Shown one piece after another: positions 8,114 through 26,833 of a DNA stretch of 64,000 nt. The notes under the pieces were generated by a model that saw nothing but the letters and a program-made list of their open reading frames with translations, did not search any database and was not told the DNA's origin. Both the position numbers and the translations under genes were made by a program. The stretch is from an uncultured Dehalococcoidales bacterium (lineage in GTDB: Bacteria; Chloroflexota; UBA6077; FW602-bin22): contig CAZHZF010000007.1 in NCBI GenBank assembly GCA_964536925.1, forward strand, positions 5,237-69,236. The letters are read 5' to 3'. Each line of letters opens with the position of its first letter. The first letter of the stretch is position 1.

Positions 8114-9741
8114 CGCTGGTACGGCGTCCTCGGTCGGAGTCGATACACCTGAGCTTCACCGTTGTCGTAGACGCGCAGTTCGCCGCTCACCGGCGGCAGC
8201 ACCTGCCCGGTCCGTGCGGCACGCAGGCGCACGATGTCCGTCACGGCGTACGTGCGGATGCCGGGACTGAACTGGCCGGTGTGTTGAAAGACATACTGCC
8301 CGGACATGACCACGTGTGCGGTGAACAGCCGCTCGTCGAGATCGGACCAGAAGGATCGATCGCTCAGATGTGAGTTTGCGAAGCGCATCACCGCCTCCTC
8401 GGCCGGCACGTAGAACGTCCATTTGTTGCTGAGGATCGGCTCGTTCGTTGCCTTGGCGACAGCGAACAGCGTCAGCATGCCGAGCGCGCCTGCGGCGAGG
8501 ATGCGCAGGCTTCGCGTGGGTCTCCACTGCGCGAGGAAGATCGCCACAACCGGCGCCGCGACCATCACGAAGGACGGGAACGATCGGTACTGGAGATTGC
8601 CCCCGAAAGAACCGGATCGGTCCGCGATGATGCTCAGGAAACCCTGCGCGGCGAACGCGCCGTAGAAGAGCCACAGGAGCCACTGGCCCACCGTCGGCGC
8701 CGACCTCGGGCGCGCCAGCCAGATCAGGCCCAGCCTCCCCCACGCGATAGCCGAGGTGAGCATCAGGACGTAGGTACCGATGGAGAGGAGCAGGTAGATG
8801 CGCGGATCGATCCACTGCTGGAAGATCGTCGCGTACGGATCGTATTCGACGATATCCGAGGTCGCCGCGGAGTCCTCCTGGCTCACCGTGAGGAACAGGC
8901 GCGAGAGGCGGTCGAACAGATCCGGCACCTGATTGATCGCGTGCCCGGCTGGGGGGTACAGGTAGTTGCTGAAGAGATACGCGAGCAGAGCGCAGAAAAG
9001 CGGTGCGTAGATGAGCCGCTGGCGGGTCGTCGCGGCCACGCTCCCGAGACCAGGCCCGAACAGCGCCGCGATCATCGAGCCGATGAGCGCCACGCTCATG
9101 GCCCAGATGAAGGAGGATCCGAAGAGCGAGTTCGTCGCGATGACGCCGTAGACGGAGAGATAGAAGAGGAGGATGTAGACCGCCTGCTTGGTGGGGGCGG
9201 ACTGTGCACGAAAGGAGCGGACGAGCAGCCAGATGGCGACGAAGAGGAGCGCCCGGAGGACCCGCTCGTGGCTGCCTCGCAGGACCACGAAGAGAAACTC
9301 CGGCTGGGTAACCAGGAGCACGGTGGCGATCGTCGCGGCGCGGCTCGACCCCGTCAGTTCGCGATAGACCGGCCAGGCCACGAGCACGAGAGACGCGCTG
9401 ATGAGCGGATAGAGCGCCTGCAGCAACGTCTGCACCGAGAGCCCCGTCGTCGCCACCAGTGCCGCCGAGACGAGGGAGAACAGGTAGCCGTTCGGGTAGA
9501 TCTCGTCGGCCACCGGCACGAGGGTTTCATTGCGGATGATCGCTCGGATGGCCGACGCCATGACCGCCGTGTCGCTGTCGGCCCATCGACCGGCGTAGCG
9601 GAAGCTGAAGTACGCGCCGAGGATGAGGGCAAATGCGGTCAGCGCCGCCACGATCCAGGCGTTCCCCGCCGGCAGCGGATCTTCGCCGCGTGCCGGAACG
9701 ATCGCGGCGACGCGCGGCGCGGCCTGCGCACGGGCGGCCAT
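8110..9741 (-). CDS. 543-aa polytopic membrane protein (GT-C / polymerase-like; family not assignable by eye)
   Basis: I count more than 10 hydrophobic helices. Its start overlaps the stop of the 827-aa gene at 9741. It sits between the DUF1616-like gene and the exported giant protein. The function call is inference from context only. Confidence 0.7.
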   Translation of the reverse strand: MAARAQAAPRVAAIVPARGEDPLPAGNAWIVAALTAFALILGAYFSFRYAGRWADSDTAVMASAIRAIIRNETLVPVADEIYPNGYLFSLVSAALVATTGLSVQTLLQALYPLISASLVLVAWPVYRELTGSSRAATIATVLLVTQPEFLFVVLRGSHERVLRALLFVAIWLLVRSFRAQSAPTKQAVYILLFYLSVYGVIATNSLFGSSFIWAMSVALIGSMIAALFGPGLGSVAATTRQRLIYAPLFCALLAYLFSNYLYPPAGHAINQVPDLFDRLSRLFLTVSQEDSAATSDIVEYDPYATIFQQWIDPRIYLLLSIGTYVLMLTSAIAWGRLGLIWLARPRSAPTVGQWLLWLFYGAFAAQGFLSIIADRSGSFGGNLQYRSFPSFVMVAAPVVAIFLAQWRPTRSLRILAAGALGMLTLFAVAKATNEPILSNKWTFYVPAEEAVMRFANSHLSDRSFWSDLDERLFTAHVVMSGQYVFQHTGQFSPGIRTYAVTDIVRLRAARTGQVLPPVSGELRVYDNGEAQVYRLRPRTPYQR

Positions 9742-12224
9742 CAGTCCTCTCGCGTGCGCGTGCGGTCGGCCCAGACGAGGAAGGCGACGCCGATGGAGAT
9801 CGCGACGCCAAGCGTGAGACTGGCGGTGATCGCGCCGCTCGCGAAGGGAGGCAGGCGTTGTGCGGTGAGGATCGTCGCCAGATCGCTGGGCGGGACGCGG
9901 TTCACACGGACGGCCGCGACCTCGGAGACCGCGGTCGCTCCGCCGGTCGCGAACGCCTGCAGCGTCCAGTCACCGGGGAGGACCGGTATCCAGGTCATCT
10001 CGATCGGCGTCGTTCCATCGGCGTCGATGCGCGTCGTCGTGGTCGCGGCGACGCGGGCGTCCTGGCCGCCGGCATCCCGCCAGGCCAGGATCGAGATCAC
10101 CGCCTGAGGAATCGGCACCGCGCTCGGGTTTACCACGCTGACGCTGAGACGCGTGGGCATCTGTTCCACCGCGTCATCCCCCCGTGTCCGCGGGCTGCCC
10201 AGCGAGATCGGTACCGCCGGCGCCGGTGAGATCGTGGCGCCCGTGACCGGGTCGACCCGCAGCCGATACGTTCCCCGGTCCATCGCCGGGAGCAAGGCTC
10301 CGGCTCCCTTGCGCTCGACGAGTCGGAGGAGGAACGTCTCCTCACCGCCGGCATCCGCGAACGACCAGGCCTCCGCCCCCGGGATCGTCTCCACCTCCGA
10401 CGCTCGGGCACGGAACATCGTGGCGATATCGTGGCCTTCATCGTACGAGGCCACCAGTCGGTGCAGATCGCGGAACGCTTCCCAGGACGCGCGATCGGTC
10501 GGCGGCGCGATCGTGGCGAGTTCGCGCTCCGCCGGGCCGCGGCCGACCTCGACGCCCGCTGGAGTGGAGAGGACGAGCCAGCCGCCCACCCGCGCGAGGA
10601 CCCCGAACAATCCCCCCGCCTCGACATCCTCCCAGCGCTTCACACGGCCGTCCGGGCTGTAGGCGTACCGGAGTTGCCGCTGGTCCGTAAGTTGCCAGTA
10701 TCCGAGCTCCGCGCCGATCAGATGCAGTTTGTGGTCTACCGCGTCCAGGTAGAGGCGTGGGCGGCCGCCGAGAAAGCCCACTGCCTCGCCGCGGAACCCC
10801 ACGGCGATGCTGCCACCGAGGAGGTTTCGCTTCTCCAGGCTGAAGCCGGCGAGGTAGTTCTGCTGCTCCTCCGAGCACGCCGTGCATCCGGAGTAGATCC
10901 CCTCGGTCGTCCAGAACCTCGGAGTCTCCGTGGCGATGAAGTTGACCGCCTCCCAGTCATTCTCGATCACCCACTTCGGGAACTCCGCATACGGCACGGT
11001 CCGCACCGCCACGCCCTCGCCGACCTCCACGACCGAGGGCATGGGTCTCCGTCCCGCGGTGGAGATCATGTAGGAGAGCCGCTGCGTGTGGTCGTGGTCC
11101 CAGCTGTAGCGTGTTTGATGGAACGGTTCTTCGATCGGTGTATCGGAGAAGTAGTCCGCGGCGACCCACGATTGATCGCGGATGATCAGATCGGGGACAC
11201 CGTCATCCTTGCCGGCGAGGTTGTAGAAAGCGAAGGGGTTCTCGAAGTTGGCATCGACGGCGCCGCCGTCACCGAATCGGAGCAAGGAGTAGATGAACCA
11301 GTTGGTGGGCCGCCCGCGCGACGCGACGAACTCTCCGATCACCTGGATCCGGCGGCGGCTGAAGTCGATCTGAATTGGCGGAAAGGATTCGTGGTAGTTC
11401 TTGACGATCCCGTACGCCGCCTCCGAGATGGCACCGAGCGGCCGGCGCGCGGGCGGTTCCACGATGAGATTCCCGGCACCGAACTGGCCCAGGTGCGGCC
11501 ACAAAATGTAGGTCTCCACCGGCACCTCGTCGTCCGCGGTGTTCACCATCAGGAGCGTGCGGTAGATCGCGGAAAGGTCGCTGATCGGTGGTCGCGTCTG
11601 GATAATCTGCCAGTCCGGTCGCCCGTCGCCATCCCGATCGAACACGCGGGTGACGATGTCCGCGATGCCGTCGGTGCGCGTGAACTCGAGGAAGACCTCG
11701 CTGTTGAAGGCGGCATTGACGGGGCCGTCGGTGCGGAGCGTCAGGTTGTAATTCACCGTTCCCTGGCGGCTCCACCAGCCATCCGGCGCGATGACGGTCA
11801 GGGAGGGGAAGCGTGATTCGATCGAGCGCGGATAGCCGCGCTCGAGCCCATGGCGCAGCTCTCCATCTCCGTTGGCATCGTCGTAGAAGTCGGCGACGAG
11901 CGCGCCCTGGTCCCGCCGGAAGTCGATGAGGAGGCTGGCGCGCCCGGTCGCCCCCGCGTCGAAGACCCACACGGCGTTCTCGGTGTTGATCTGCGTGCGC
12001 CAGTCCGCCGCGGTGTCGACCGGTTCACGGGCGTACATGAAGAGTCGATCGTGCTCCGAGTAATACCCCGGGCGGCAGTCCAGGATCAGGATGTCCACCC
12101 CGAACTGGCGCTGCCACGACGGCCGGCAGCCATCGAGACTGTCGTAGGCGGCCCGGGCGCGACCCTGGAGCGCCACGGCACCGACGATGGCCAGGATGAG
12201 CGCGACCGCGCGAAAGCTCGCCAC
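9741..12224 (-). CDS. 827-aa exported protein with C-terminal membrane anchor, unknown family
   Basis: It has a signal-peptide-like N-terminus (MASFRAVALILAIVGAVALQGRARAA) and a C-terminal TM helix followed by a basic tail (ASLTLGVAISIGVAFLVWADRTRTRED). GC3 is good throughout. No recognisable catalytic motif. Confidence 0.8.
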   Translation of the reverse strand: MASFRAVALILAIVGAVALQGRARAAYDSLDGCRPSWQRQFGVDILILDCRPGYYSEHDRLFMYAREPVDTAADWRTQINTENAVWVFDAGATGRASLLIDFRRDQGALVADFYDDANGDGELRHGLERGYPRSIESRFPSLTVIAPDGWWSRQGTVNYNLTLRTDGPVNAAFNSEVFLEFTRTDGIADIVTRVFDRDGDGRPDWQIIQTRPPISDLSAIYRTLLMVNTADDEVPVETYILWPHLGQFGAGNLIVEPPARRPLGAISEAAYGIVKNYHESFPPIQIDFSRRRIQVIGEFVASRGRPTNWFIYSLLRFGDGGAVDANFENPFAFYNLAGKDDGVPDLIIRDQSWVAADYFSDTPIEEPFHQTRYSWDHDHTQRLSYMISTAGRRPMPSVVEVGEGVAVRTVPYAEFPKWVIENDWEAVNFIATETPRFWTTEGIYSGCTACSEEQQNYLAGFSLEKRNLLGGSIAVGFRGEAVGFLGGRPRLYLDAVDHKLHLIGAELGYWQLTDQRQLRYAYSPDGRVKRWEDVEAGGLFGVLARVGGWLVLSTPAGVEVGRGPAERELATIAPPTDRASWEAFRDLHRLVASYDEGHDIATMFRARASEVETIPGAEAWSFADAGGEETFLLRLVERKGAGALLPAMDRGTYRLRVDPVTGATISPAPAVPISLGSPRTRGDDAVEQMPTRLSVSVVNPSAVPIPQAVISILAWRDAGGQDARVAATTTTRIDADGTTPIEMTWIPVLPGDWTLQAFATGGATAVSEVAAVRVNRVPPSDLATILTAQRLPPFASGAITASLTLGVAISIGVAFLVWADRTRTRED

Positions 12225-13226: not shown

Positions 13227-15362
13227 TCAGGACATCCGGGAACCGGTCAGAAGCAGCCTCCGCTCCCTCCGGTCGATCCAGCCGCAGTAGAGTCGTTCCG
13301 GGAGGAGTCGGATCGCACGCCCGAGACGCGACTCATCCAGATCCCGTACCTCAACTCGCACAAACCCGGCCTCGCGCAAACGCGCAAGCCACTCAGGTCC
13401 ACTCAGAACAGCGGACGTGCCCTGACCTGTCCGCTCGTATGTCTGGCGCAACCGCGTAAGTGTTGGGCGGCTGTAGTCGAAGACGAGCAGCGACCCACCG
13501 GGGCGAAGCACACGTCGCGCTTCGGAGAGGCACCGGTCCAGTGTGAGTTGATGCAGCGTCCCAATCAGGAAGACCACGTCAAATGAACCGCCAACGAAAG
13601 GGAGAGTGTGGGCGTCCCCGAGGAGATCGGGGTCGCGTGGCAACAGGTCTCTGTACGATTCGTCCGTAATGTCGATCCCGACATATGTCCCACGCACTGC
13701 GGCGCGGTACTGAGCCATCCCACAACCGATCTCCAGGCTCCTGGATTCATCGACAGTCGCCCGCCTGAGCCAACGCGCGATCTCGGGGTCCCGATACGCG
13801 TCAAGTGGATCCGATCCGGGCGTGGACACCTCAGATGCCCGAGTTGTCGCTGTCGCGTGATCCTCGGCGGAGGACCGGACGACGACCTCACGCAGCGAAT
13901 CTGCTGGTATTCGATTGGCAAGAACGCCGCGGATTGCACGCATCTCTTGCGGTGTAATCGTCCTGAGGGCCAGAAGGCCTATAACGTATGTTGCCACTCC
14001 CGCGATGGACGCAAGTGCAAGATCTGCGACGGTCAACACATCGAGAGGATACACAAAAACCAGGAATACGATCATGATGGCAGTCGCAGCGCAGATCCGC
14101 CATATCCGTGAATATTCGTAAGTGAGAGGGAGGGCTCGAGAGCCGAACCACCAGGTCAGACAATACTGAAATGCAAACGATATGAACGTGGAAAGAGCTG
14201 CGCCGCCGATTCCCATCGACGGGATGAACAGAAAGTTAAGTACTAGATGAAGTATTGCAGCCAGCGCCATGCTCAAAGTGGAGAGTGACTGGCGGCCGAC
14301 CAGTCCGAGGCTCACATCGAAGTAGCTGGCCATCATCATGGCGCCATAGCCGAGAGTGATCAGTACTGCAAAATCCGCACCGTAAACAAACTCTGGCGTG
14401 GTTAATACTGAGAGAAGATCTCGAGAATAGATCCACAGACCGGCCATAGCCGGTATTAATAGTGCGAGTGCAGCCGACGTTGAATAGCGAAATAGCTGCT
14501 GCAAATCCTTGATGCGGTTGTGGTTGTACATTTCTGCCGCAGATGAGGGGTACATTACCCAGATAGGGTTGAAAATCACACCGATGAGCGCGTAACCAAT
14601 GTTGTAGGCGACGCTGTAGACCCCGATGTCGAACAGCGTGCCGTACTGTGCCAGGAAGATGCGGTCGGAGGAATTGAGAGCCCACATCCCATAGCCCATA
14701 GGAACGAGAGGGAGTCCAAAGCGCATGAACTGCACGAGCATCGTAGTATCTGGTGCTCCAAATCCATGGCTGAGTGCAATCTGCCCGAGTGCGGCGATAA
14801 TGAGCGCGAAGTCGGCGATGAGACCCGCGACAAGTAGAGTGTAAGCATCGCCACCGAGCGTAACAGCTACGACGGATACCGCCGTGGCAATGAGAGATTG
14901 GCTGACATTGAGAGTGGCGTAACCACGCCCGCTTGATACAAGGCGATAGTAGTTGCGACACGCGGTGAGGAGGAGAGTTGTCGCCAGGGCTGCGCCACAC
15001 AGCACCACGAAACGCGCGTGGTCCGCGTTTCCAAACAGTACGGTTGCGATTGGGGCTGCGAACGCGACGAGAATCAGGGAGAAGAGGACGCTTACAGCCG
15101 CGTAGTACAGGATCAGCGTGGTCACGCCGGATTGAATGGTGCGACGATCGGTTCCGGGCAGGAATCTGACAGCCGCAGAGTCCGTTCCGACAACTGCGAT
15201 CGGTGCCACCATGCCCACGATTACGGCGACCTGTGCCCAGGCTCCGAAGTCGGTAGGACCGAGGGCGCGGGTCAGTATCGGGAGGAGGAAGAGCGTTTTG
15301 AATCGCAGGAGCAGTTCCGTGACACCGAGGATGCCGGCGTTGCGGAAATACGCCCCGATCAC
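13227..15362 (-). CDS. MOP/Wzx-type polysaccharide flippase fused to a C-terminal SAM-dependent methyltransferase domain
   Basis: The N-terminal approx 480 aa form a multi-helix Wzx-like domain (MIGAYFRNAGILGVTELLLRFKTLFLLPILTRALGPTDFG). The C-terminal approx 190 aa carry motif I SLEIGCGMAQ (around nt 13739), FDVVFLIGTLHQL and RRVLRPGGSLLVFDY. It is a single uninterrupted ORF. Confidence 0.85.
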   Translation of the reverse strand: MIGAYFRNAGILGVTELLLRFKTLFLLPILTRALGPTDFGAWAQVAVIVGMVAPIAVVGTDSAAVRFLPGTDRRTIQSGVTTLILYYAAVSVLFSLILVAFAAPIATVLFGNADHARFVVLCGAALATTLLLTACRNYYRLVSSGRGYATLNVSQSLIATAVSVVAVTLGGDAYTLLVAGLIADFALIIAALGQIALSHGFGAPDTTMLVQFMRFGLPLVPMGYGMWALNSSDRIFLAQYGTLFDIGVYSVAYNIGYALIGVIFNPIWVMYPSSAAEMYNHNRIKDLQQLFRYSTSAALALLIPAMAGLWIYSRDLLSVLTTPEFVYGADFAVLITLGYGAMMMASYFDVSLGLVGRQSLSTLSMALAAILHLVLNFLFIPSMGIGGAALSTFISFAFQYCLTWWFGSRALPLTYEYSRIWRICAATAIMIVFLVFVYPLDVLTVADLALASIAGVATYVIGLLALRTITPQEMRAIRGVLANRIPADSLREVVVRSSAEDHATATTRASEVSTPGSDPLDAYRDPEIARWLRRATVDESRSLEIGCGMAQYRAAVRGTYVGIDITDESYRDLLPRDPDLLGDAHTLPFVGGSFDVVFLIGTLHQLTLDRCLSEARRVLRPGGSLLVFDYSRPTLTRLRQTYERTGQGTSAVLSGPEWLARLREAGFVRVEVRDLDESRLGRAIRLLPERLYCGWIDRRERRLLLTGSRMS

Positions 15363-15394
15363 CGGACGACCTGTTGGTTCAGGGCGGCCAGTAC

Positions 15395-16030
15395 CTACGC
15401 CCCCTGCGAGGGATCGGCCAGGTCGATACAGAAGATCGCCTGATGCGCGTCGATCGCGGCGCGGAGGAACCGACGCTTACGTATCGGAATGATCGTGCAC
15501 CGCTGTCCGAGCGACTGGTAGATTGCCGGATAGTCGTGGTGGAAGTTCCACGGCGATGTCTGGCGGGAACTCGCCTGGAAGTCGCTGCCCTGCCACCAGT
15601 CAATGTGCACAAGGTGTCGCTGCGCATGGCCCAGGAGGCAGCCAATCACTGTGACGATGTCGGTCGGCGGGACGTGCAGCAGCACTTCCGATGCGAGGAC
15701 AACATCGAATCGCTCGCCCTCCGGGAGTGACTGGATATCTGAGACCCGAAACTCGAGACCGGGTCGTTCGCCAACATAGGTGCGCGCCGCGTCGATCTGA
15801 TCGGCGGAGAGATCGCTTGCGACGTACCTGGTGATTCCCGGAATCTGCTCCAAAACCAGGCGCGTGATGCGCCCGAAGCCGCACCCCACCTCAAGAACGC
15901 TCTGGCCGCGGCGCGAGCGCAGTGCCTCGACAATCGCGGACTCCTGCAGAGCGAAGTGCTTCTGCGGGAACGCCTCCCGTGAGTAGGTCTTGCCGCGTTC
16001 CGTCCAGTACGCGTGCGGATCGTACGTCAC
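15395..16030 (-). CDS. class I SAM-dependent methyltransferase
   Basis: Motifs VLEVGCGFGRITRLVL, FDVVLASEVLLHV. It overlaps the upstream FemAB-like gene by 4 nt. Confidence 0.85.
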   Translation of the reverse strand: MTYDPHAYWTERGKTYSREAFPQKHFALQESAIVEALRSRRGQSVLEVGCGFGRITRLVLEQIPGITRYVASDLSADQIDAARTYVGERPGLEFRVSDIQSLPEGERFDVVLASEVLLHVPPTDIVTVIGCLLGHAQRHLVHIDWWQGSDFQASSRQTSPWNFHHDYPAIYQSLGQRCTIIPIRKRRFLRAAIDAHQAIFCIDLADPSQGA

Positions 16031-17118
16031 GAGGACCGGCCTCGGGCAACTCTGGATAGAGCGGTAAGGATTCTCGAGCGACGCGTCGAGCGCTCCTTCG
16101 TGTACCTCACGTACTCAGTGTAGATGCCGCCCCATTTCTCCTTGAATCGCCTGATGCCAGCCTCCTTGTCGCTCGACGGACGTGGCGCAATGCCAGCGAG
16201 ATCAAAGAGGCGGGCGCCGGCATCCTTCGCCGCGATGAGAACGTGCCAGTGGAGAAGATCCTGGGCCGGAATGCCGGATTCGTACGCTCGGTTCGTCGTC
16301 GACGACGCGATCTCGGTCGCGACGCCGCCGAACGCATAGATGCCCAGGGTAGCCAACGGATGCCCGTCGGCGTCCTGGGCGACGAAGTATCGGTAGATCG
16401 ATCGATCGGTTCGTTCCCAGAGCGCCGTCCAGAACGAGCCGGTCTGACGTGGGCGTCCATCGCGCGCCTCACACGCGTCGTAGGTTCGCGCAAACCGATC
16501 CGCAAAGTCTTCCGCTGTGCCGATCTCTACGGCTGTTGCACCGAGCCTTTCGCACTTGCGTACTGCCTTGCGCGCGGCCGGGCTGAGCACGTCCCAAATA
16601 CCCTCTCGAGACGGAGACAGGTCCACGAGGAGAGAAGCCCAGAGATCGGCGGTGTATCCTCGTTCGATGAAGGCGTCACGCGCAGGACTTTCCAAAGCAT
16701 AGAGAGGAGCAGTCGCGTTGCTGCTCGTCGTAATTTGCGAGACTCTATGTGACGAAGCAAACTGCGATACCCAGTCCAGCAACAGATTCACTGAGATCAC
16801 GTCGTATCCAACAATGTGGATGATGGGTCCTGCCGACAGATCGAGGGTGCCTCCGTCGAGGCCGACAACCGATGAGTACCACGATCGCGCCATTCTTGTC
16901 GTCAATCGGTCGAAAGGTGGTCGATGGAGTGCCAGCAGAGAGGCAACTACGTCATTGCCAGAGCGTACTTCAAGATAGAAAGGGTCCGCCCGGTCGACGG
17001 CAGCGACGAGATTTGCCCACATTGAGGTCTGCACAAATGTGGCAACTGTCCCCTGCTGACGAAGCCGCTCGTCCCAGCCCGGCGGAGGCGTTGATGAACA
17101 CTCGATCGCCAGACTCAC
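16027..17118 (-). CDS. FemAB/FemX-like (GNAT-fold) peptidyl/aminoacyl transferase family protein
   Basis: The C-terminal half (YRYFVAQDADGHPLATLGIYAFGGVATEIASSTTNRAY...LLHWHVLIAAKDAGARLFDLAGI...GIRRFKEKWGG) matches the characteristic FemAB/FemX pattern, including the terminal F-K-x-K/G-F/W-G-G motif. Confidence 0.7.
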   Translation of the reverse strand: MSLAIECSSTPPPGWDERLRQQGTVATFVQTSMWANLVAAVDRADPFYLEVRSGNDVVASLLALHRPPFDRLTTRMARSWYSSVVGLDGGTLDLSAGPIIHIVGYDVISVNLLLDWVSQFASSHRVSQITTSSNATAPLYALESPARDAFIERGYTADLWASLLVDLSPSREGIWDVLSPAARKAVRKCERLGATAVEIGTAEDFADRFARTYDACEARDGRPRQTGSFWTALWERTDRSIYRYFVAQDADGHPLATLGIYAFGGVATEIASSTTNRAYESGIPAQDLLHWHVLIAAKDAGARLFDLAGIAPRPSSDKEAGIRRFKEKWGGIYTEYVRYTKERSTRRSRILTALSRVARGRSS

Positions 17119-18301: not shown

Positions 18302-19645
18302 ATGGAGATCGTTCACCCCCGCGAACCGCGGCGACCCTTCGCGATCCACCGCCCGCCGGATGTATCGACGGACCGCACTCCGCGCTGTATCTTAGCGAAC
18401 GGTTTGGACCGTTCCCGGCCCGTACTCTGCGTCGTCAATTACGAACCCATCGCCCGCTACCGCGACCTCGGGCACTCGCTCGAGATGTTGCGGCGCTACT
18501 ACAACCCGAATGGCTACTTCTCGGCGGTGCACATCGTGGCTGTGGACGATGGCGAATGGGACGTCTCGCCGGACGTCCACGTCCACGGCGCGCGCGGGCC
18601 GGATCTGCTCGCCCGAGTCGTCTCGGTCGCGCGGGCGACCGGGGCGAGCGTCATCAGGAACTTCGAGGCGTTCCCCACGCATCTCGTCGCGGTGCGCGCC
18701 GCGGCGATCCTCGACGTTCCCGCGGTCATCTCGCTGCACGACGTGATGTCACCCTCGACCGTGACTCTGTTCGATCACGTCTTCGCCTACGTGGAATGGC
18801 TGCGCGATCGGGTACGGGCGCAGCACGGCTACCGGAACGCGTCCTTCCTGCCCAATCGGATCGACGAGGGGTTGTTCACCCCCGGTCCGCCGCGCTCGAT
18901 CGAGGTTGAGGGCTCTCCTCGCTTCGTCTGCGTGGGGCGACTCGACGAGCGAACCAAGAACATCGGCACGCTCCTGCGCGCGATCGATCTGGTGCGGGAC
19001 CGGCTGCCCGATCTCCGTCTCGCCGTGATCGGCGAGGGACCGGGTCGCGCCGACTACGAGCGGCTGATCGAGGAACTGAAGCTCGGCTCACGGGTGAGAC
19101 TCGTGGGCAATCAGCGCGAGGATCGGGTTGCGGACTGGTACCGCTGGTGCGATGCCCACGTACTCGTGAACGACTCGGGAGATCTCGGCCGCTCGTTGGT
19201 CGAATCGCTAATCGCCGGCAAGCCCGTCGTGGCGACCGGCGGGCGTGGCAACTCCCTGCACCATCTCGAGCACGGCGCGAACGCCTTTCTCGTGCCCATC
19301 GAGCGCATCCGCGACCCGGCGGCCATCGCCGAGGGGCTCGTCTGGATGGCCGAGAACCATTCCCGCCTCGATCCCGCGGCGATTCGCGAGCGGGCAGTTG
19401 CCGAGTACGGGTACGATCGGTGGGCGCGTGTCGAGGCGGAGACATACGCCGCGGTGATCGCGGCCTTCCGTGCCAGGCCGCCGCACGAGCGCCTGTGGCG
19501 GCGGCTGCGCGTCCTCCTGCTCTCCTCGATCGCGGGCACATCGGGCCCGACCAGACCGCTCCGCATCGCGTACCGACTCGCCCAGGCTGGCATGGCCTGG
19601 CGGTCTCCGCGGCGGGCCGAGGGACTCTCATCGGCGTCGCTCTGA
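18302..19645 (+). CDS. glycosyltransferase family 4
   Basis: RFVCVGRLDERTKNIGTLLRAIDLVRDRLPDLRLAVIGEGPGRADYERLIEELKLGSRVRLVGNQ and LGRSLVESLIAGKPVVATGG. It lies only 26 bp from the divergent GT start at 18275. Confidence 0.85.
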   Translation: MEIVHPREPRRPFAIHRPPDVSTDRTPRCILANGLDRSRPVLCVVNYEPIARYRDLGHSLEMLRRYYNPNGYFSAVHIVAVDDGEWDVSPDVHVHGARGPDLLARVVSVARATGASVIRNFEAFPTHLVAVRAAAILDVPAVISLHDVMSPSTVTLFDHVFAYVEWLRDRVRAQHGYRNASFLPNRIDEGLFTPGPPRSIEVEGSPRFVCVGRLDERTKNIGTLLRAIDLVRDRLPDLRLAVIGEGPGRADYERLIEELKLGSRVRLVGNQREDRVADWYRWCDAHVLVNDSGDLGRSLVESLIAGKPVVATGGRGNSLHHLEHGANAFLVPIERIRDPAAIAEGLVWMAENHSRLDPAAIRERAVAEYGYDRWARVEAETYAAVIAAFRARPPHERLWRRLRVLLLSSIAGTSGPTRPLRIAYRLAQAGMAWRSPRRAEGLSSASL

Positions 19646-19683: not shown

Positions 19684-21750
19684 ATGGCCGTGGCGGCGCG
19701 CATGCGTCACGGTCGCGACACGCTGCTCGATCGCCTCGAACTCGGCCGAGCGAGCATCTCCCCGGGTGGGACTGCTGACCTCAGCGCCGCGGAACGCGCC
19801 GTCGATTGGCTCCGCGCCGGTGAGCTTCCCGGCGGAGGAATCCGCGTCCACGATCGGCACCTTCACGCCTATCAGGAGGTGACCGGCTATCTCATCCCGA
19901 GCCTCCTCGACGTCGGCGCGCGTGATCTGGCCTGCCGATGCGCGGAGTGGCTCATCGCCGTCCAGCGCGAGAGCGGCGCGTTCGTCGATCCCGACCGGGG
20001 CGAACCGTACGTGTTCGATACGGGCCAGGCGCTCCGGGGCCTGCTCGCCGCCCGCGACATCGTGCCCGGCGCCGCCCGCGCCGCCGCCCGCGCCGCGCAC
20101 TATCTGTGCCGTTCGCTTCGCGAAGGCGGTGCCGGCGGGTTCCCCGAAGCGTATCGCGGGAGCGTCGCCGCGGAGCCGATTCAGCTCTATGCGCTCTCGC
20201 CGCTGGCGCGGTATGCCGAGCTCGCGGGAGACCGCGATGTGCGCGAAGCCGCGGCGCGGGCCGTCGCGCACTACCTGAAGCATCCCGATCTGCTGCGGAT
20301 CGGTGATCTCACCCATTTCCTCGTGTATCAGGTGGAGGCACTCATCGAGCTGGGTATGGCGGACCGCGCCGCGGGAACGCTGGCGATGCTGGGTCAGGCG
20401 CAGGTCGCCGACGGCTCGGTCCGCGCGACCGGCGCCGGGGCGTGGGTGTGCTTGCCCGGCCTCGCCCAGCTGGCGATCTGCTGGTATCGAACCGGCGACC
20501 CCTCCCGCGCGGATCGTGCACTCGCCTGGCTCGAGCGACACCAGCGCCCCTCTGGTGGGTGGCGCGGCAGTCACGGGTTCGGCGCCACCTACTTTCCCCG
20601 ACGGGAACTGAGCTGGGCGGTCAAGTTCTTCCTCGATGCGGCGCGTCGACGCGAGATCGCCTGGCGCCGGGCCTATGCCCCCGAGGGGGCCCTCGGCGCG
20701 ATCGGCCACCTTCCGACCGGTCCGCTCGGGCGGCTCGCGATCATCGGCGACCGGACGAACGTCCTCGCCCGCGCAGCACGGGTCGTGCTCGCCGACTGCG
20801 CGATCGAGAGCGTTGAGTTCCCCATCGACGATTCGCCGCCGTTCGTCCTCTCGGCCCGCCCGGAGTTCCTGCCTCTCGCCGATCGCGCCGCCGACGCGGT
20901 CCTCGTCGCCAGTCTTGCCCACGCGCTCGATCGGCGGGCGGCGATCCGCGAGGTGACGCGCATCGTCCGTCCGGGCGGCAGCATCGTCGTGCTGGGCGAC
21001 GCCCCGATCGAGACCTGGTTGGGTGATCGATGCGCGATCGAACGGCGCGTGCAACTGCCCCAGGGTCAGACAGTGACCGTCGCCCGCCGTGTCGAGCGCG
21101 ACCGCATGACGTTGGCGTCCACATCCGCCGCCACCACGGCAGCCGCACCAGCACCGGGTGCGATCGACGTCGACGCCATCCGCTTCGGGAGGGTGGCGCC
21201 GGTGATCCGCCGCCTGATCTGCCTCGTCGAGCCGGCTCCAGGCCGATCCGTGCTGGTCGTCGGCGACCCTGGCTCCCATCTCCCCCTCCACCTCGCCCGG
21301 CAGGGCGCCCGCGTGATCCTGGAAGCCGGACGCGCGACGAGCGCTCTTCTCGACGCCTGCCGGGCCCTCGATCTGCCCGCGACGGCATTTGCCGTCTCTA
21401 CCGGTGCGGATGCGTCCCCGCAGGATGAGGGCTCGATCGATGCGATCGTCGCGGTCGATCCGAGCGCCGACCTGTTCGCGGCCGGATCGGTGGTAGCGGC
21501 CGCCTTGGCGCGGCATCCTGTGCCGCGGCTGATCGTCGCGCTGCCGCTATCGGCGGATGTGACCGGGTCGCAACGGGTCAGACTCGATTCCGGGCTTCCC
21601 ATGTCGACGCTGCTCTCCTGGTTCGGCAAGATCGCGCCCGCGCCCGAGATCGAGGTCATCGCGGCCCACTCGATGCACGGCGAGGAGAGGAGCGGGCCAC
21701 ACTGGCTTATCGCGAGCGGTCCTCCGGTGCCGGGACCTATGAGCACATGA
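19684..21750 (+). CDS. multidomain protein: alpha/alpha-toroid (prenyltransferase/squalene-cyclase-like repeats) plus two methyltransferase-like Rossmann domains
   Basis: ORF 19147-21750 overlaps the upstream gene, so the start was moved to ATG 19684 (MAVAARMRHG). The N-terminal approx 330 aa carry repeated Q-x-x-x-G-(G/A/S)-(W/F) type motifs (AVQRESGAFVD, QAQVADGSVRA, RHQRPSGGWRGSHG). Next comes RLAIIGDRTN...RIVRPGGSIVVLGD, then VLVVGDPGSHLPLHLARQGARVILEAG. The glycine-rich loops are degenerate. Confidence 0.75.
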   Translation: MAVAARMRHGRDTLLDRLELGRASISPGGTADLSAAERAVDWLRAGELPGGGIRVHDRHLHAYQEVTGYLIPSLLDVGARDLACRCAEWLIAVQRESGAFVDPDRGEPYVFDTGQALRGLLAARDIVPGAARAAARAAHYLCRSLREGGAGGFPEAYRGSVAAEPIQLYALSPLARYAELAGDRDVREAAARAVAHYLKHPDLLRIGDLTHFLVYQVEALIELGMADRAAGTLAMLGQAQVADGSVRATGAGAWVCLPGLAQLAICWYRTGDPSRADRALAWLERHQRPSGGWRGSHGFGATYFPRRELSWAVKFFLDAARRREIAWRRAYAPEGALGAIGHLPTGPLGRLAIIGDRTNVLARAARVVLADCAIESVEFPIDDSPPFVLSARPEFLPLADRAADAVLVASLAHALDRRAAIREVTRIVRPGGSIVVLGDAPIETWLGDRCAIERRVQLPQGQTVTVARRVERDRMTLASTSAATTAAAPAPGAIDVDAIRFGRVAPVIRRLICLVEPAPGRSVLVVGDPGSHLPLHLARQGARVILEAGRATSALLDACRALDLPATAFAVSTGADASPQDEGSIDAIVAVDPSADLFAAGSVVAAALARHPVPRLIVALPLSADVTGSQRVRLDSGLPMSTLLSWFGKIAPAPEIEVIAAHSMHGEERSGPHWLIASGPPVPGPMST

Positions 21751-22865
21751 CCCGCGTGGTGATCCTGGCTCGTTCGGTGCGCCGCGCTCGCCGGCGCGCC
21801 CGCCTCTGGGCCAGAGCGGCCGTACCCGGAGTCCAGATCTCTGCCCTGGCGCTCGATGCCTGGCGGGTGTTTGAGTTCGACGAGGGGACCGTCTACCCCT
21901 TCGATACGGACTTCGGGCGATGGATGGACGATCGTCCGGTCGGCGGAGCGGCCCTGGCCCTCGGCGCGGCGGCTCTGGTCGGGGGCGATCTGCCGATACC
22001 CGGCGCGATCCTGGACTCCTGGGCGTGGTCCGTCCGGGCGCTCGACCCCGATGTGGTCGATGTCGCCGAGTTCCCGGGCGGCCGCGACGGTTTCGACCGG
22101 CTCGGCGTGAGTTCCCGTGTGGGCGTTGTGACTGCGCCCGCACCGGTCGCTCCCCTCGATCGGCGCTCGGCGGCCGAAACGCTCGTGAGCGTGGTCCTGC
22201 CCGTCTACAACGGCGGCCCCTGGCTGGAACGGTCGCTGCGGAGCTGTCTCGAACAGACCCATCGGCACCTCGAGATCGTCGCGGTGGACGACTGCTCTAC
22301 CGACGACACGCCGCGCACGCTGGAACGGATCGCGGCTCAGGATGGGCGCCTCCGCGTCTATCGCAACGAGCGCAACCTCCGTCTTCCTGGGGCGCTGAAT
22401 GCCGGGTTCGCGCGCACCGAAGGCGAGTTCCTCACCTGGACGAGCCACGACAACTACTTCGCGCCAGACGCCATCGCCACACTCGCCGATTACCTGGCAA
22501 CCTGGGAGGATGTCGATTTCGCGTACTCGGCGTATCGCGAGGTGGACGAGCGAGATCGAGAGAACCCGGCGATCCTCTATCGTCCTCCGCCCTGGATGCT
22601 CAGGCGGCGGAACGTCGTGGGCGCGTGTTTCCTGTACCGCCGCGCGGTCTACGAGAACACCGGCGAGTTCCGCCGCGATCTCGAGTACGTCGAGGATTAC
22701 GAGTACTGGGTTCGCGTTGCGCGCCGCTACCGTTTGATGCGGCTGCCGTACCCCCTCTACTACTACCGGCAGCACGAGCAGTCGATGACCGCGAAGGCGA
22801 ACAGCGAGGCGCGGTACGCGCCACTGATCGCCCGGGTCCACGCCGAGCACTACCCCGGGTCGTGA
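21747..22865 (+). CDS. glycosyltransferase family 2 with approx 140-aa N-terminal extension
   Basis: VSVVLPVYNGGPWLERSLRSCLEQTHRHLEIVAVDDCSTDDT, RNERNLRLPGALNAGF, SHDNYF. ATGA overlap with the upstream gene (21747-21750). Confidence 0.85.
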   Translation: MTRVVILARSVRRARRRARLWARAAVPGVQISALALDAWRVFEFDEGTVYPFDTDFGRWMDDRPVGGAALALGAAALVGGDLPIPGAILDSWAWSVRALDPDVVDVAEFPGGRDGFDRLGVSSRVGVVTAPAPVAPLDRRSAAETLVSVVLPVYNGGPWLERSLRSCLEQTHRHLEIVAVDDCSTDDTPRTLERIAAQDGRLRVYRNERNLRLPGALNAGFARTEGEFLTWTSHDNYFAPDAIATLADYLATWEDVDFAYSAYREVDERDRENPAILYRPPPWMLRRRNVVGACFLYRRAVYENTGEFRRDLEYVEDYEYWVRVARRYRLMRLPYPLYYYRQHEQSMTAKANSEARYAPLIARVHAEHYPGS

Positions 22866-23578: not shown

Positions 23579-24498
23579 GCCGCGAGCTCCAGCATCGTCC
23601 GAAACTCGCCGTTGAAGTTCCTGGCGAGCCACGCAAGGCGCGCCTCGAAGCGATCGCGATGGCCAACCGCGCACCCTGGACGGGGCAGGTCCACGAACTC
23701 CCATGGATGGCTGAGGATCACCAGGTGGCCCTGTGCGTCACCGGCGGCCTCCTGGCACGCGAGGATCTCCTCGACCGCAAGGGCGAGGTCGGTCTCCGTG
23801 AAGTCGATCACGTTGCTCACATTCAAGATCGCGAACCGCGCCCACGTCGGGATGCCGTAGCGTCTTCTCATCCGCGGCCGCGGGCTCGCGGACACCGGGA
23901 TGCGGATAAGTCCCCGCTCTCGGGTGACCAGGGGCAGAGCGCCGCGGAAGGCCGGCGCCGAGGAATCGAGCGCGAAGCCAGATTCGCGCAGCAGCGCGAG
24001 ACTCGCGACATCGCAGCAGAGGTTCGGGGCCCGAAACATCGTCGGCCGTGCCAGGCCCGCACGCGCGAAGGCCGCGAGCGCGAACTCCATTCGCTGCGTC
24101 CGTTCCGCGAGGGAGAGGCGTGGCTCGGGCGCGAACCAGAGCGGGTCGCCCCACTGCTCGTGGAGGTGGCCGTGGAGCCCGATCGCATGTCTCTCGGCCA
24201 GTTCGCGAAGTTCCGTGCCGATCGCCTCGCAGATCGACCCCTGCACGAACAGGGTCGTCCGCCAGTCCTGCGCCGCGCACATCGCGCCGAACCAGTCCAG
24301 GAACGGCGCGCACGCCGACCAGTGCTGTGGCGTGCCGGCCGATCCGAAGTCCTGTTCCACATCCACGGTCACACAGATCGTGGTCGGCCGCCTTGGGTCC
24401 CGGCGACGGCGGGGTAACCGGTTCCAGCGCGACACCCAGAGCGGCGCGTGGTGCGGCAGACGTGGCTCGCGTGCCCAGTCGAGGATCCGATCAAGCAC
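23575..24498 (-). CDS. polysaccharide deacetylase-like (CE4/DUF3473-type) protein
   Basis: ICVTVDVEQDFG and IGLHGHLHEQW resemble the D-x-E and H-x-H metal-binding signatures of the polysaccharide-locus-associated deacetylase family. It overlaps the upstream gene by 8 nt. Confidence 0.65.
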   Translation of the reverse strand: MLDRILDWAREPRLPHHAPLWVSRWNRLPRRRRDPRRPTTICVTVDVEQDFGSAGTPQHWSACAPFLDWFGAMCAAQDWRTTLFVQGSICEAIGTELRELAERHAIGLHGHLHEQWGDPLWFAPEPRLSLAERTQRMEFALAAFARAGLARPTMFRAPNLCCDVASLALLRESGFALDSSAPAFRGALPLVTRERGLIRIPVSASPRPRMRRRYGIPTWARFAILNVSNVIDFTETDLALAVEEILACQEAAGDAQGHLVILSHPWEFVDLPRPGCAVGHRDRFEARLAWLARNFNGEFRTMLELAA

Positions 24499-26833
24499 GG
24501 TGTTCGCGCGCCACCGGTCGGTAGACCTCGTCGATCAGGCGGTCCACCACGCCGCTCCACGTGAGCGTCCGCCGCGCCTCGGCCGCCGCGGCATCGCCCA
24601 GCCTTCGCGCGCGCACTGGGTCGCGGAGCAGATTCTTCAGTTGATCGGCCATCGCGGCCGCGTTGCCGATCCCGACGAGCACACCCGACTGCCCATCGTC
24701 GAGGACATCCTCGGTACCGGCGATGCGTGTGGCGATGATCGGGGCGCCGCAGGCCATGGCCTCGATGACGACCCTGGGGAGACCGCCGGTCGTCGCGGCG
24801 AACAGGAAAGCGTCGCACGCGGAGTAGAAGTCGGCCAGCCGATCGCGTGGGGACCACCCGTGGAAGGTGACCCGGGCGACCAGGCCGAGATCCCGGGCGA
24901 GTTCGCGGAGCCGTCCCTCCTCGGGGCCAGAGCCGACGATGTGGAGGTCGGCGCGCAGGGTGGGTTCGAGTGCCGCGAATGCCCGCAGGACGGTCGCGAA
25001 GTCGTTCTCAGGATTGAGCCGGCCAACGGTCAGGATCACCCGACGATCCGGGTCCAGTCCGAGCCTCTCCCGTGCGCCGCTCGTTCGCTGATACACCGCT
25101 CCGGCGGTGCCGAGCGGGATGCGGATGAGCCGATTCTGGGGTACGCCGGTGCGCCTCCACCATCCCTCCATCTCCCGCGAGGTGGCCACGACTCGGGCGC
25201 AGCGGGCCGCGGAGATTCGCGCCGCGACCCAGAGAGCCGCCGTCACCGAAGGATCGTACGGATTGTGTCCGGAGGAGATCTTCTGGTCGATGCTGCCGGG
25301 TACAGTGAGCACGACCGGGTGCCGGGTGAAGAGGCTGGCCACCGCGGTCGACATGTACTCTGGCGCGTGAACGATCGCCCGATCGAGCGCCGGGATCGAG
25401 CACGCCGCGCGCAGCGCGATGAGCGCGTGTCCGACGATGTTGCGGTACCCGAGCGGCGGAAGGCCGAATGGATGGAGGGTGACTCCTGTACCCGCCCGCG
25501 GATGGGTGGCGTAGGGCGCGACGACGTGCACCGACACGCCGCGCCGATCGAGTTCGGTGGCGAGGTCCCACACGATATCGCTGAGGCCGCTCGCGCCGGG
25601 GCGAGCAAGGTCGAGGATGTAGTCGAGGAACACGATCGGGGGAATGTCTGCACCGGTGAGCCGCGCATCCGACCGTGCCTCCGCCTCGATGGGTCCCAAC
25701 ACCTCGGCCCGGAGCCGCCGGACGATCGTGGGCCATGTGTACCGTTCGAGCGCCTGTCGATGCGCCCGCGCGGCGATCCGCGCCCGCTCCTCCGGGTCGC
25801 CGAGGGCGGCTGCGATCGTGCGCGCCCAGGCTTCATCATCCTCCGGCGACACGAGGTAACCGGTCTGTCTGTCCTCGATCGCGTCCGGCGTGCCGCCGGC
25901 GGTCGATCCCATCACCGTGGCCCGGCACGCCATCGCTTCGATCGGCACGCGCGCGAACGGTTCGCCCGTCGAGGGCAGCAAGACCAGGTCGGCGGCCCCG
26001 TAGTAGTATGGCACCTCGGTCGACGGGACCCAGTCGGTGAACGTCACCCGTTCGGCGACGCCAAGTCGTTCCGCCAGGTCGCCCAGAAACTTCCGCCGCG
26101 GCCCGCGGCCCACGATATGGAGCCGCGCCCTCGGACGTAGCGAGCGGAGACGGGCCATTGCACGGACCAGAACACGGGCGTTCTTCTCGTAGGAGAGCCG
26201 ACCCAGGAACAGCAGCATCTCCTCGTCGGCGGGTATTCCCAGGTGTGAGCGTGCCTGCAGGCTGTCGATCGGCCGGAACCTGTCCGCGTCGATACCGAGC
26301 GGCACCACCGAGACGTGGCTCGGCCGTGCACCCGTGCGGATCCACCACGCGCGCATGTGTCGGCTCAGCGCCACGACGTGACGGGCACGCCGGGCCGCGA
26401 CGAGAGCGGCGACCTTGTACACCTGCGTCGTGTACCAGTCGAAGGGGTTTCCCGAAATCTCTCGTTCGAAGATGTTCCCCGGCGTCGTGAAGATCACCGG
26501 CAGATCCGGCCGGACGATCGCCGCTACCGCGGCGCCGACGTACTCGGGCAGAAACACGATGTCGGGGCGGGGAATGCGTCGCAGGGCGCGCGCCATCGCG
26601 TAGCACGTCACGATCTGTCCGACGACGTTGCGGCGCCAGAGGCCCGGGCGATGGACGAGATGGAAGGTGACCGGGCCACTCGGCACACTCGCGTCTGCAT
26701 CGTATGCGCCGAAGAGATGCACCTCATCGCCAAGGCGACCGAGTTCCCTGCCGACATCCCAGGAGATGTCGCTGAGGCCGCTCCGGCCCGGCTGCGCGGG
26801 GTCGAGGACCCAGTCGAGGATGGCGATGCGCAG
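24491..26833 (-). CDS. tandem double GT4 glycosyltransferase (two complete GT-B modules in one polypeptide)
   Basis: Two donor-binding motifs are present: [39 protein letters not shown] and GGLPRVVIEAMACGAPIIATRIAGTEDVLDDGQSGVLV. The track ORF starts at GTG 26722, but the frame is open to 26836 and encodes the canonical GT4 first strand (L/M)RIAILDWVLDPAQPGRSGLSDISWDVGRELGRLGDEV. The only in-frame initiator candidate there is CTG 26833. Confidence 0.8.
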   Translation of the reverse strand: MRIAILDWVLDPAQPGRSGLSDISWDVGRELGRLGDEVHLFGAYDADASVPSGPVTFHLVHRPGLWRRNVVGQIVTCYAMARALRRIPRPDIVFLPEYVGAAVAAIVRPDLPVIFTTPGNIFEREISGNPFDWYTTQVYKVAALVAARRARHVVALSRHMRAWWIRTGARPSHVSVVPLGIDADRFRPIDSLQARSHLGIPADEEMLLFLGRLSYEKNARVLVRAMARLRSLRPRARLHIVGRGPRRKFLGDLAERLGVAERVTFTDWVPSTEVPYYYGAADLVLLPSTGEPFARVPIEAMACRATVMGSTAGGTPDAIEDRQTGYLVSPEDDEAWARTIAAALGDPEERARIAARAHRQALERYTWPTIVRRLRAEVLGPIEAEARSDARLTGADIPPIVFLDYILDLARPGASGLSDIVWDLATELDRRGVSVHVVAPYATHPRAGTGVTLHPFGLPPLGYRNIVGHALIALRAACSIPALDRAIVHAPEYMSTAVASLFTRHPVVLTVPGSIDQKISSGHNPYDPSVTAALWVAARISAARCARVVATSREMEGWWRRTGVPQNRLIRIPLGTAGAVYQRTSGARERLGLDPDRRVILTVGRLNPENDFATVLRAFAALEPTLRADLHIVGSGPEEGRLRELARDLGLVARVTFHGWSPRDRLADFYSACDAFLFAATTGGLPRVVIEAMACGAPIIATRIAGTEDVLDDGQSGVLVGIGNAAAMADQLKNLLRDPVRARRLGDAAAAEARRTLTWSGVVDRLIDEVYRPVAREHRA

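Follow-up and report, generated by a model that had tools for sequence, protein, structure and literature searches.

The window analyzed in this study (the whole stretch of 64,000 nucleotides) contains a gene best read as the decayed copy, specific to this lineage, of a glycan-tailoring family that is widespread and unstudied. The protein joins an N-terminal toroid to two degenerate methyltransferase-like modules (MT1 and MT2), and it is probably a dead-methyltransferase derivative whose conserved toroid most likely still binds an intermediate, either glycan or carrier, and acts together with the translationally coupled glycosyltransferase GT2, a reading to which we give a probability of roughly 0.55. 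The initial annotation missed both the large family from which the gene has decayed and the fact that its sister ortholog is a pseudogene. Coordinates are collected in Table 1.

Table 1. Features of the toroid gene and its neighbors in the window
Feature	Coordinates	Strand	Basis
Whole gene, 688 aa, toroid and two dead MT-like modules	19684..21750	+	ORF, translation, GC3 0.82 throughout
QW-motif (α/α)6 toroid, ~aa 35-330	19786..20673	+	AF2, Foldseek, family profile, conserved columns
MT1-like module, ~aa 340-470, degenerate class I methyltransferase	20701..21093	+	partial Methyltransf_11, alignment to canonical MT1
Relic SAM-binding motif I of MT1, LAIIGDRTN, aa 351-359 (family consensus VLEVGCGKG)	20734..20760	+	alignment
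Ala/Thr/Pro-rich linker between the MT-like modules	21094..21180	+	translation; pLDDT <50 in AF2 model
MT2-like module, ~aa 500-680, degenerate class I methyltransferase	21181..21723	+	alignment to canonical MT2, Foldseek
Relic motif I of MT2, VLVVGDPGS, aa 523-531 (family consensus VLEIGSGTG)	21250..21276	+	alignment
Translationally coupled GT2, 372 aa, ATGA overlap	21747..22865	+	Pfam Glycos_transf_2
Upstream GT4, 38 nt gap to gene	18302..19645	+	Pfam Glycos_transf_1 / Glyco_trans_1_4
Left-hand end of the synteny shared with the sister genome, whose copy has no sequence upstream of codon 247	20422..20422	.	blastn, tblastn, nucleotide alignment

The gene and its parent family

The 688-codon reading frame at 19684-21750 on the forward strand is coding-like, with GC by codon position of 0.77/0.56/0.82 over the full length of the gene and similar values in the neighbor genes, and the peptides quoted in the initial annotation are all present in the translation. 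The open frame is in itself weak evidence, because the DNA is 70% GC and the opposite strand of the gene holds an 801-codon open frame. The DNA is 68-70% GC and includes a gene for inositol-1-phosphate synthase. Public protein P0001 is identical to the window protein and starts at ATG 19684; among the starts proposed earlier (this ATG, or GTG at 19636, 19651, or 19660), GTG 19651 is the sole in-frame alternative, whereas 19636 and 19660 are GTC. No obvious Shine-Dalgarno sequence precedes either ATG 19684 or GTG 19651. The product is a soluble cytoplasmic protein, without hydrophobic segments. Coordinates and Pfam matches agree that the gene lies between a GT4 and a GT2, with an ATGA overlap to the latter.

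A search for the same three-module architecture elsewhere found a large family, present in the genomes of 216 species of bacteria and archaea, in which a toroid is joined to a canonical SAM-methyltransferase, with or without a second one; 54 of 58 diverse toroid proteins have a canonical Methyltransf_11 domain. All three window modules are homologous to those of canonical toroid-MT-MT proteins, and HMMER gave one unbroken alignment of window aa 4-621 with P0015 and another of aa 33-587 with P0135. The three-module architecture proposed earlier is correct. Proteins annotated as "methyltransferase domain-containing protein" (MFA5864850.1 from a Phycisphaerae MAG; P0002-P0060) have the same module order, 36-54% toroid identity to the window protein, all of the invariant toroid residues, and the same GT2 partner directly downstream. 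In canonical members both Methyltransf_11/25 domains are complete and have GxGxG, whereas in the window protein the loops of the two methyltransferase modules are broken, segments are deleted, and identity is about 20%: identity to canonical members is 54% for the toroid, 23% for MT1, and 20% for MT2. The window protein has the toroid and the partner GT2 of the family but not its canonical motif I, with 29 of 45 conserved positions changed in MT1. Its best homologue among GTDB species representatives is 39% identical.

The association with GT2 is a feature of the family. A GT2 of the same subfamily is adjacent to or fused with the toroid gene in approximately 70 of 83 loci, and the window GT2 shares 43% identity with the toroid-fused GT2 domains of P0033 and P0031 and with the GT2 encoded beside P0012. 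Wzm-like genes are present in 29 of the 83 toroid loci, and two canonical members have Wzm and Wzt with a Wzt_C CBM beside them. The chain-terminating, multidomain methyltransferase proteins WbdD (E. coli O9a / K. pneumoniae O3) and ORF6 (K. pneumoniae O7) also lie beside Wzm and Wzt, and in O-antigen pathways dependent on ABC transporters the C-terminal CBM of Wzt reads the terminal cap (PMC11231755). The two canonical relatives thus occupy the same Wzm/Wzt-CBM context as these terminators; however, WbdD and ORF6 have kinase and coiled-coil ruler modules and no toroid. Unlike WbdD and ORF6, the window protein has no functional methyltransferase motifs, and unlike many canonical loci its cluster has no Wzm/Wzt, having a Wzx-type flippase instead. 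By analogy with terminators recognized by the Wzt CBM, canonical members may have a capping role, and the terminator analogy would apply to the parent family.

The window gene would descend from this family of glycan-tailoring enzymes, in which a QW-motif toroid is fused directly to a SAM-methyltransferase, usually with a second one after it, and the gene has a particular GT2 as its partner. The toroid of canonical members would hold the terminus of a lipid-linked glycan as the acceptor to be methylated, and where Wzm/Wzt-CBM exporters adjoin, this methylation would probably be the cap at the non-reducing end. In the lineage of the window both methyltransferase modules appear to be dead, and methylation, if any, could come from canonical stand-alone methyltransferases elsewhere in the cluster. 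The toroid would be what stays under family-level constraint, with a presumed acceptor-binding role in which it most likely binds a glycan or carrier intermediate and partners GT2, while the methyltransferase relics would persist as a structural appendage on which purifying selection is relaxed yet still acts.

No Pfam or NCBIfam model covers the toroid of the family, and literature searches found no published work on the toroid-MT family or on the 8paj/8pak structures that resemble its toroid. Species with this uncharacterized family number in the hundreds and range from Planctomycetota to Firmicutes and Archaea, and the family is of more interest than the window gene. Cultured carriers of a canonical homologue include Paenibacillus sp. 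y28, Thauera sp. WH-1, and Anaerocolumna sp. MB42-C2. It is a tentative and rather speculative proposal that the QW toroid is an unrecognized functional domain, for recognition of glycan ends or carrier lipids or for a new carbohydrate-active catalysis, which with the methyltransferase and GT2 forms a new, widespread class of capping or termination system in bacteria and archaea. Under this proposal the window protein would be a natural separation-of-function variant, with a role of the toroid that is selectable independently of methylation. Were this a new type of glycan-capping enzyme, the known chemistry of chain termination would be extended.

The sister pseudogene and selection along the gene

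The only close relative of the window gene is the copy in a sister genome, with 82-87% nucleotide identity. This copy has become a pseudogene: it is cut short at codon 247 and contains one stop and two frameshifts, the latter a +1/-1 pair after which the frame is restored up to the GT2 start overlap; a further lesion is found at the invariant W311 in the sister population. Assembly error was rejected as the source of these lesions, which are the same in five independent assemblies. The neighbors of the pseudogene are all intact, with 83-94% amino acid identity. The sister flank also has F420-ligase and luciferase-like genes. The MT1 loop of the sister copy, LAIVGDRMN, is the same degenerate loop as in the window; since the degenerate loops are common to both copies, they predate the split. 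The window protein and the sister pseudogene give a snapshot of the module-by-module decay of a multidomain enzyme. When the degenerate C-terminal half was used as the query, only the sister pseudogene was found, and no further member of the degenerate clade was present in protein sets of 5.8 billion and 1.84 billion or in metagenome contigs, where a first scan returned nothing and a second only the same sister population and distant canonical relatives.

Against the sister copy, over the region common to both, omega is 0.20 for the toroid part, 0.33 for MT1, and 0.45-0.51 for MT2, compared with 0.08-0.14 for all but one of the nine flanking genes at an equal dS of approximately 0.5; for each of the segments it is significantly lower than 1. 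The initial annotation had offered a non-catalytic scaffold as an alternative for the whole protein. This is plausible for the methyltransferase half, where omega is 0.33-0.5 and significantly below 1, but it is not established for the toroid, the conservation of which is typical of the family. An outgroup-polarized relative-rate count over aa 247-685 gave 12 consensus residues lost in the window copy and 11 in the sister pseudogene, and so does not directly indicate better preservation of the window copy over this range.

These comparisons bear on the possibility that the gene in its entirety is a relic without function, a pseudogene at an early stage with no role after loss of the methyltransferase, in which the frame would be open only through the rarity of stops in GC-rich DNA, perhaps with ribosomes needed at the ATGA for the GT2 start. 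We consider this somewhat unlikely, although much of the sister evidence is what it would predict: the same gene is an obvious pseudogene among intact neighbors, the sister population has the extra lesion at W311, the frameshift pair keeps the frame up to the GT2 start, omega is 3-5 fold above that of the neighbors, the relative-rate count is symmetric, and the degenerate clade has no other members in the sets searched. It does not account well for the toroid, which retains all 31 family-invariant columns and 112 of the 132 columns conserved at ≥90% in the family (85%). Because the methyltransferase halves have drifted to approximately 20% identity while the toroid has kept these positions, the toroid appears to have been selected long after the methyltransferases died. 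Translational coupling alone would also not constrain missense changes, yet omega is below 1 throughout, and the window copy is free of stops, frameshifts, and truncation, whereas the sister copy gained four lesions over the same divergence. Even under the preferred reading of a retained, binding toroid, the function would be dispensable, because a close genome has truncated and inactivated the gene yet kept GT2. The window GT2 has an omega of 0.105 against the sister genome; as GT2 is strongly constrained there without the toroid, the toroid is not required for GT2.

The toroid domain

The AF2 model of aa 1-339 (mean pLDDT 92.3) has 12 helices forming an (α/α)6 barrel, and Foldseek matched it to class II terpene-cyclase-like and glycosidase-like barrels with E values of 4e-8 to 1e-5 (8paj, 7xr7, 7qsj, 3sqc). 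The family profile of the toroid matches squalene-hopene cyclase sequences (E 3e-5), and there are three QW-like motifs (Q94/G98, Q240/G244, and Q287/G291-292) whose Q and G positions are invariant in 35 homologues. The earlier placement of the N-domain in the terpenoid-cyclase/prenyltransferase-type toroid superfamily is therefore supported by fold model, structural matches, profile, and motifs alike. The invariant residues include carboxylates, a His, a Cys, a Lys, and numerous aromatics; E65, D112, H211, C256, K314, E308, and D318 lie at or beside the predicted helix starts at aa 64, 110, 210, 257, and 310, and these helices are taken, on the model of other (α/α)6 barrels, to be the inner helices of the barrel.

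Class II terpene cyclases, including 3sqc, the single-domain 8paj/8pak, and the drimenyl-diphosphate synthase 7xr7, have the (α/α)6 barrel and QW-type repeats in common with the window toroid, at 19-24% identity. A class II terpene cyclase was nevertheless rejected. The DxDD proton donor is missing from the window toroid and occurs in only two of the 35 homologues, at unconserved positions; the toroid is a single 12-helix barrel without the beta-gamma didomain; and scores are far under the family cut-offs (19.9 versus 26.1 bits for PF13243 and 19.5 versus 322.7 bits for TIGR01787). The gene also has a glycan-assembly context, not one of isoprenoid synthesis. LanC and the prenyltransferase beta-subunit were rejected as well, with no LANC_like or Prenyltrans Pfam match at E ≤ 0.1.

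In global superposition, the toroid model agrees best with MmpH, a methylmannose polysaccharide hydrolase (7qsj; TM-score 0.70, rmsd 4.3), followed by GH88/GH105-type glycosidases. MmpH belongs to a methylated-polysaccharide pathway with methyltransferases and a GT4, and its central cavity is acidic and conserved (PMC9883506). One alternative is that the toroid is an enzyme itself, trimming like a glycoside hydrolase or lyase as MmpH does or modifying sugars in some other way, so that catalysis and not binding would have been retained. The seven invariant residues at or beside the putative inner-helix starts are compatible with this. However, MmpH is a stand-alone hydrolase with 14% identity to the toroid and no relationship at the sequence level, the sequence signals favor QW-motif cyclase-type toroids, and the near-obligate fusion to a methyltransferase is explained no less well by an acceptor-binding domain, making an enzymatic toroid distinctly improbable.

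The methyltransferase-like modules

The initial annotation described two Rossmann modules as degenerate and methyltransferase-like, with non-canonical glycine loops, and alignment to canonical SAM-methyltransferase domains confirms this; NAD-binding Rossmann domains were rejected, as both modules are homologous to those domains. In the homologue alignment VGCGKG has become IGDRTN in MT1 (C356D, G357R, K358T, G359N) and IGSGTG has become VGDPGS in MT2 (S528D, G529P, T530G, G531S), so that the E/DxGxGxG loop is broken in both, with G-D-R-T-N and G-D-P-G-S at the aligned positions. MT1 retains 16 of 45 family-conserved columns, with four deleted, and MT2 retains 19 of 59, with 13 deleted, including SSGLLEHF. 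The acidic residue that ends strand 2 and contacts the ribose is kept as Glu in both modules (D378E and D547E). The Pfam match of MT1 covers only the C-terminal half of Methyltransf_11 (aa 389-436, profile positions 47-95 of 95), at 30.1 bits against a gathering cut-off of 21.2, and MT2 had no match in the Pfam search of the window protein; canonical homologues score approximately 135 bits across two full Methyltransf domains. The AF2 model of the methyltransferase half is of moderate confidence (mean pLDDT 70.8); it predicts the core strands and helices of each module, but residues 121-171 of the model, at the C-terminal end of MT1, fall below 50. Foldseek matched the half to SAM-methyltransferases, including tandem proteins, at E values of 3e-7 and below.

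Some active methyltransferases tolerate unusual motif I sequences. In class I methyltransferases, the second and third glycines of GxGxG pack against SAM. It is very unlikely that one or both modules are still active, binding SAM through the non-canonical loop and working as in the canonical relatives: the surviving downstream elements (D378E, D547E, the Asp of an FD-type motif II, and in MT1 H413, E423, R426, and PGG 430-432), the above-threshold Pfam score, and purifying selection on the modules are outweighed by Arg and Asn (MT1) and Pro and Ser (MT2) in place of those two glycines, substitution at 29/45 and 40/59 conserved positions, deletion of conserved segments, a Pfam match limited to half a profile in one module and absent in the other, and a sister genome that has dispensed with the gene. 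The GxGxG motif of class I methyltransferases is cited in PMC11231755. With the SAM-binding glycine loops, approximately two thirds of the conserved residues, and several segments gone, the protein, judged from its sequence, has probably lost SAM binding and would be unable to methylate. The earlier proposal that the methyltransferase-like modules modify a substrate held by the toroid is not supported for the window protein, given these losses and the deletions in both modules; it fits the canonical relatives rather than the window protein.

The Foldseek matches of the methyltransferase half include RsmC, RlmG, and nematode PMT-2, which are tandem methyltransferases in which one domain is degenerate. 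In RsmC, one of the duplicated domains has lost SAM binding and serves in substrate binding or folding (PMC1934991), which is a precedent for retained pseudo-methyltransferase domains. RsmC, RlmG, and PMT-2 each keep one catalytic domain, whereas in the window protein both are degenerate, with no sign of a new role. The gene should not be named a methyltransferase in annotation. The window cluster has three canonical methyltransferase genes, and methylation of the cluster glycan is better assigned to these nearby genes.

Architecture and parent family

The gene encoding an alpha/alpha-toroid followed by two methyltransferase (MT)-like modules, MT1 and MT2, comes from an enzyme family that is catalogued but has not been characterised, and is a degenerate variant specific to its lineage. 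The open reading frame (ORF) reads as coding sequence because its GC content at codon positions 1/2/3 (0.77/0.56/0.82 over the whole length) matches that of the flanking GT4 and GT2 genes, and an identical protein (P0001) is found in a public NCBI-derived set. All peptides quoted in the initial annotation occur in the translation, and the described neighbours are in place, with the GT4 ending at 19645 and the GT2 starting at 21747 within the stop codon (ATGA overlap). Of the GTG starts proposed as alternatives to ATG 19684, that at 19651 is in frame and possible, while 19636 and 19660 are GTC codons.

Models and homology agree with the three-module architecture first described, and homology searches recovered many proteins of ~750 aa with the identical toroid-MT-MT order. 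An exhaustive HMMER search (E <= 1e-30) gave 196 clusters at 50% identity, and a scan of species-representative genomes gave 216 carriers in Planctomycetota, Verrucomicrobiota, Acidobacteriota, Chloroflexota, Firmicutes, Proteobacteria, and Archaea. Both MT domains are intact in canonical members (VLEVGCGKG and VLEIGSGTG; ~135 bits to Methyltransf_11). Among 58 diverse toroid-bearing proteins, 54 have a canonical Methyltransf_11, and additional fusions are to GT4 (11), GT2 (5), pyruvyl transferase (3), and TagF-like domains (3). The GT2 downstream of the gene is 43% identical to the toroid-fused GT2 of the homologues P0033 and P0031, as it is to the GT2 following P0012; a GT2 of its subfamily adjoins the toroid gene in ~70 of 83 loci, mostly directly downstream on the same strand. 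No literature on the toroid-MT family was found.

Wzm-like genes are present in 29 of the 83 loci, and Wzm and Wzt with a Wzt_C carbohydrate-binding module (CBM) directly flank the gene in two canonical loci. Since Wzt-type CBMs in ABC-transporter-dependent pathways recognise a terminal cap that a terminator enzyme, in many cases an MT, has added (PMC11231755), the canonical members would be glycan-methylating enzymes, probably end-capping, with the toroid as a putative acceptor-binding module. The toroid-MT-MT genes at L084 and L085 (loci of P0018 and P0012) adjoin Wzm, Wzt with Wzt_C CBM, GT2, GT4, and a pyruvyl transferase or GFO/aminotransferase fusion, a context suggestive of a new kind of terminator in ABC-transporter-dependent glycan pathways. 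The parent toroid-MT-GT2 module is a stronger lead than this one gene, whose own interest is modest.

A conserved toroid with degenerate methyltransferase modules

The AlphaFold model of residues 1-339 (with 35 homologues; mean pLDDT 92.3) has twelve helices forming an (alpha/alpha)6 barrel. The motifs noted initially are QW-type repeats, with Q/G positions invariant across the family. Foldseek matches in the PDB include the single-domain "squalene-hopene cyclases" 8paj/8pak, drimenyl-diphosphate synthase, and squalene-hopene cyclase (SHC) (E 4e-8 to 1e-5, 19-24% identity); the family profile matches SHC sequences at E 3e-5, and cyclase matches in Pfam and NCBIfam are far sub-threshold. A motif check found no DxDD in the toroid and the model has no second barrel, so class II cyclase identity was rejected. 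The best global superposition is with the methylmannose-polysaccharide hydrolase MmpH (TM 0.70, but 14% identity), followed by further glycosidase barrels; an MmpH-like catalytic toroid, which overlaps the other readings, is improbable.

The model of the C-terminal half (moderate confidence, pLDDT 70.8) matches class I SAM-methyltransferases, including the tandem-MT proteins PMT-2, RsmC, and RlmG. In place of the second and third GxGxG glycines, MT1 has Arg/Asn and MT2 has Pro/Ser. The earlier proposal of a toroid-bound substrate modified by the MT modules suits the canonical relatives rather than the window protein. Conserved columns are much better retained in the toroid, which thus remained as constrained as is usual for the family well after constraint on the MT modules had gone.

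Module-by-module comparison of the window copy with canonical members
Module	Identity to canonical	Identity among canonical members	Retained of the columns conserved at >=90%
Toroid	54%	63%	112/132, including 31/31 invariant
MT1	23%	55%	16/45, 4 more deleted
MT2	20%	58%	19/59, 13 more deleted

The favoured reading (confidence roughly 0.55) is a dead-methyltransferase derivative: the conserved toroid would still bind a glycan or carrier intermediate, probably acting alongside the GT2 to which its translation is coupled, with the MT relics serving as a structural appendage. Readings were rated separately and overlap, and their confidences need not add up to 1.

Selection in the window and sister copies

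A sister genome (freshwater metagenome contigs L001-L003 and L087-L089) matches the window at 82-87% nucleotide identity from 20422 onward. Nine flanking genes have 83-94% protein identity (dS ~0.5), with omega 0.08-0.14 in eight and 0.30 for a HAD hydrolase. The sister ortholog of the toroid gene is a pseudogene whose homology begins at codon 247, with TGA at W293 and +1 and -1 indels shifting ~82 codons of MT2; its lesions are common to five assemblies, two of which have an extra change at the invariant W311. The function is therefore dispensable. The main rival reading, possible though doubtful, is that the whole gene is already functionless and its frame just happens to remain open. In the outgroup-polarised tally, the two copies have lost consensus residues symmetrically (12 vs 11, window vs sister), so the shared region offers no direct sign that the window copy is better kept; disabling lesions number zero in the window copy and four in the sister copy. 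Between the copies, the toroid remnant has an omega of 0.20, MT1 of 0.33, and MT2 of 0.45-0.51, values 3-5 fold above the neighbours yet significantly below neutral (binomial p 2e-9 to 3e-3). The MT relics have thus been under a constraint that was weakened but genuine during much of their evolution after the split. That they remain active methyltransferases is very unlikely. Both copies have the degenerate motif I loops, which dates MT death to before the split. No further members of this degenerate clade were found in the protein and metagenome databases searched.

In the sister remnant ORF (L003 9821-11167; also L001, L002, and L087-L089) the +1/-1 pair restores the frame, giving 388 codons whose end still overlaps the GT2 start by 4 bp (GTGA). 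Selection for translational coupling may account for this, as may chance, the DNA being GC-rich.

Glycan cluster and other features of the window

In the surrounding cluster, numerous GT4/GT2 genes are accompanied by a deacetylase, an MT-fused Wzx-type flippase, and two further canonical MTs; neither Wzm nor Wzt was found in it. The sister genome retains the GT2 N-terminal extension (omega 0.105 for the whole gene), which most GT2 partners elsewhere lack. The low-GC island, probably horizontally acquired, has GC3 of 0.64-0.66 in the flippase and FemAB-like genes and 0.78 in the MT, vs ~0.82 elsewhere. The two-GT4 protein has as its counterpart in the sister genome just one GT4 of 326 aa (L003 13715-14695). 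The proteins of 7208-12224 may supply the cluster with polymerase, ligase, or chain-length functions.

Features of the window
Feature	Position	Strand	Details
Glycan cluster	~500-27,700
DUF1616 protein	7208-8113	-
543-aa protein	8110-9741	-	~11 hydrophobic segments; no Pfam match
827-aa protein	9741-12224	-	hydrophobic ends; no Pfam match
Low-GC island	13227-17118	-	GC 0.58-0.62; MOP/Wzx-type flippase with C-terminal canonical Methyltransf_11 (711 aa), stand-alone MT, FemAB/GNAT-like gene
Stand-alone MT	15395-16030	-
Toroid and two MT-like modules	19684-21750	+	688 codons
N-terminal extension of partner GT2	21747-22181	+	145 aa; no Pfam match
Extra DNA vs sister	24422-25842		~1.4 kb, at the two-GT4 gene
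Two complete GT4 units	24491-26722	-	743 aa
711-aa ORF	45512-47647	-	one N-terminal hydrophobic signal-peptide-like segment
18-bp tandem repeats	45944-47381	-	~1.4 kb within the 711-aa ORF; (T-R-T-x-T-x)n hexapeptide array
Molybdenum hydroxylase set	48928-52716	-	xanthine dehydrogenase/CO dehydrogenase-like, with FAD-binding subunit
Molybdenum hydroxylase set	53144-56889	+	as preceding

The molybdenum hydroxylase sets have no relation to the glycan cluster, and the 18-bp repeat array accounts for the strong skews at 46-48 kb (GC +0.21, AT -0.24).
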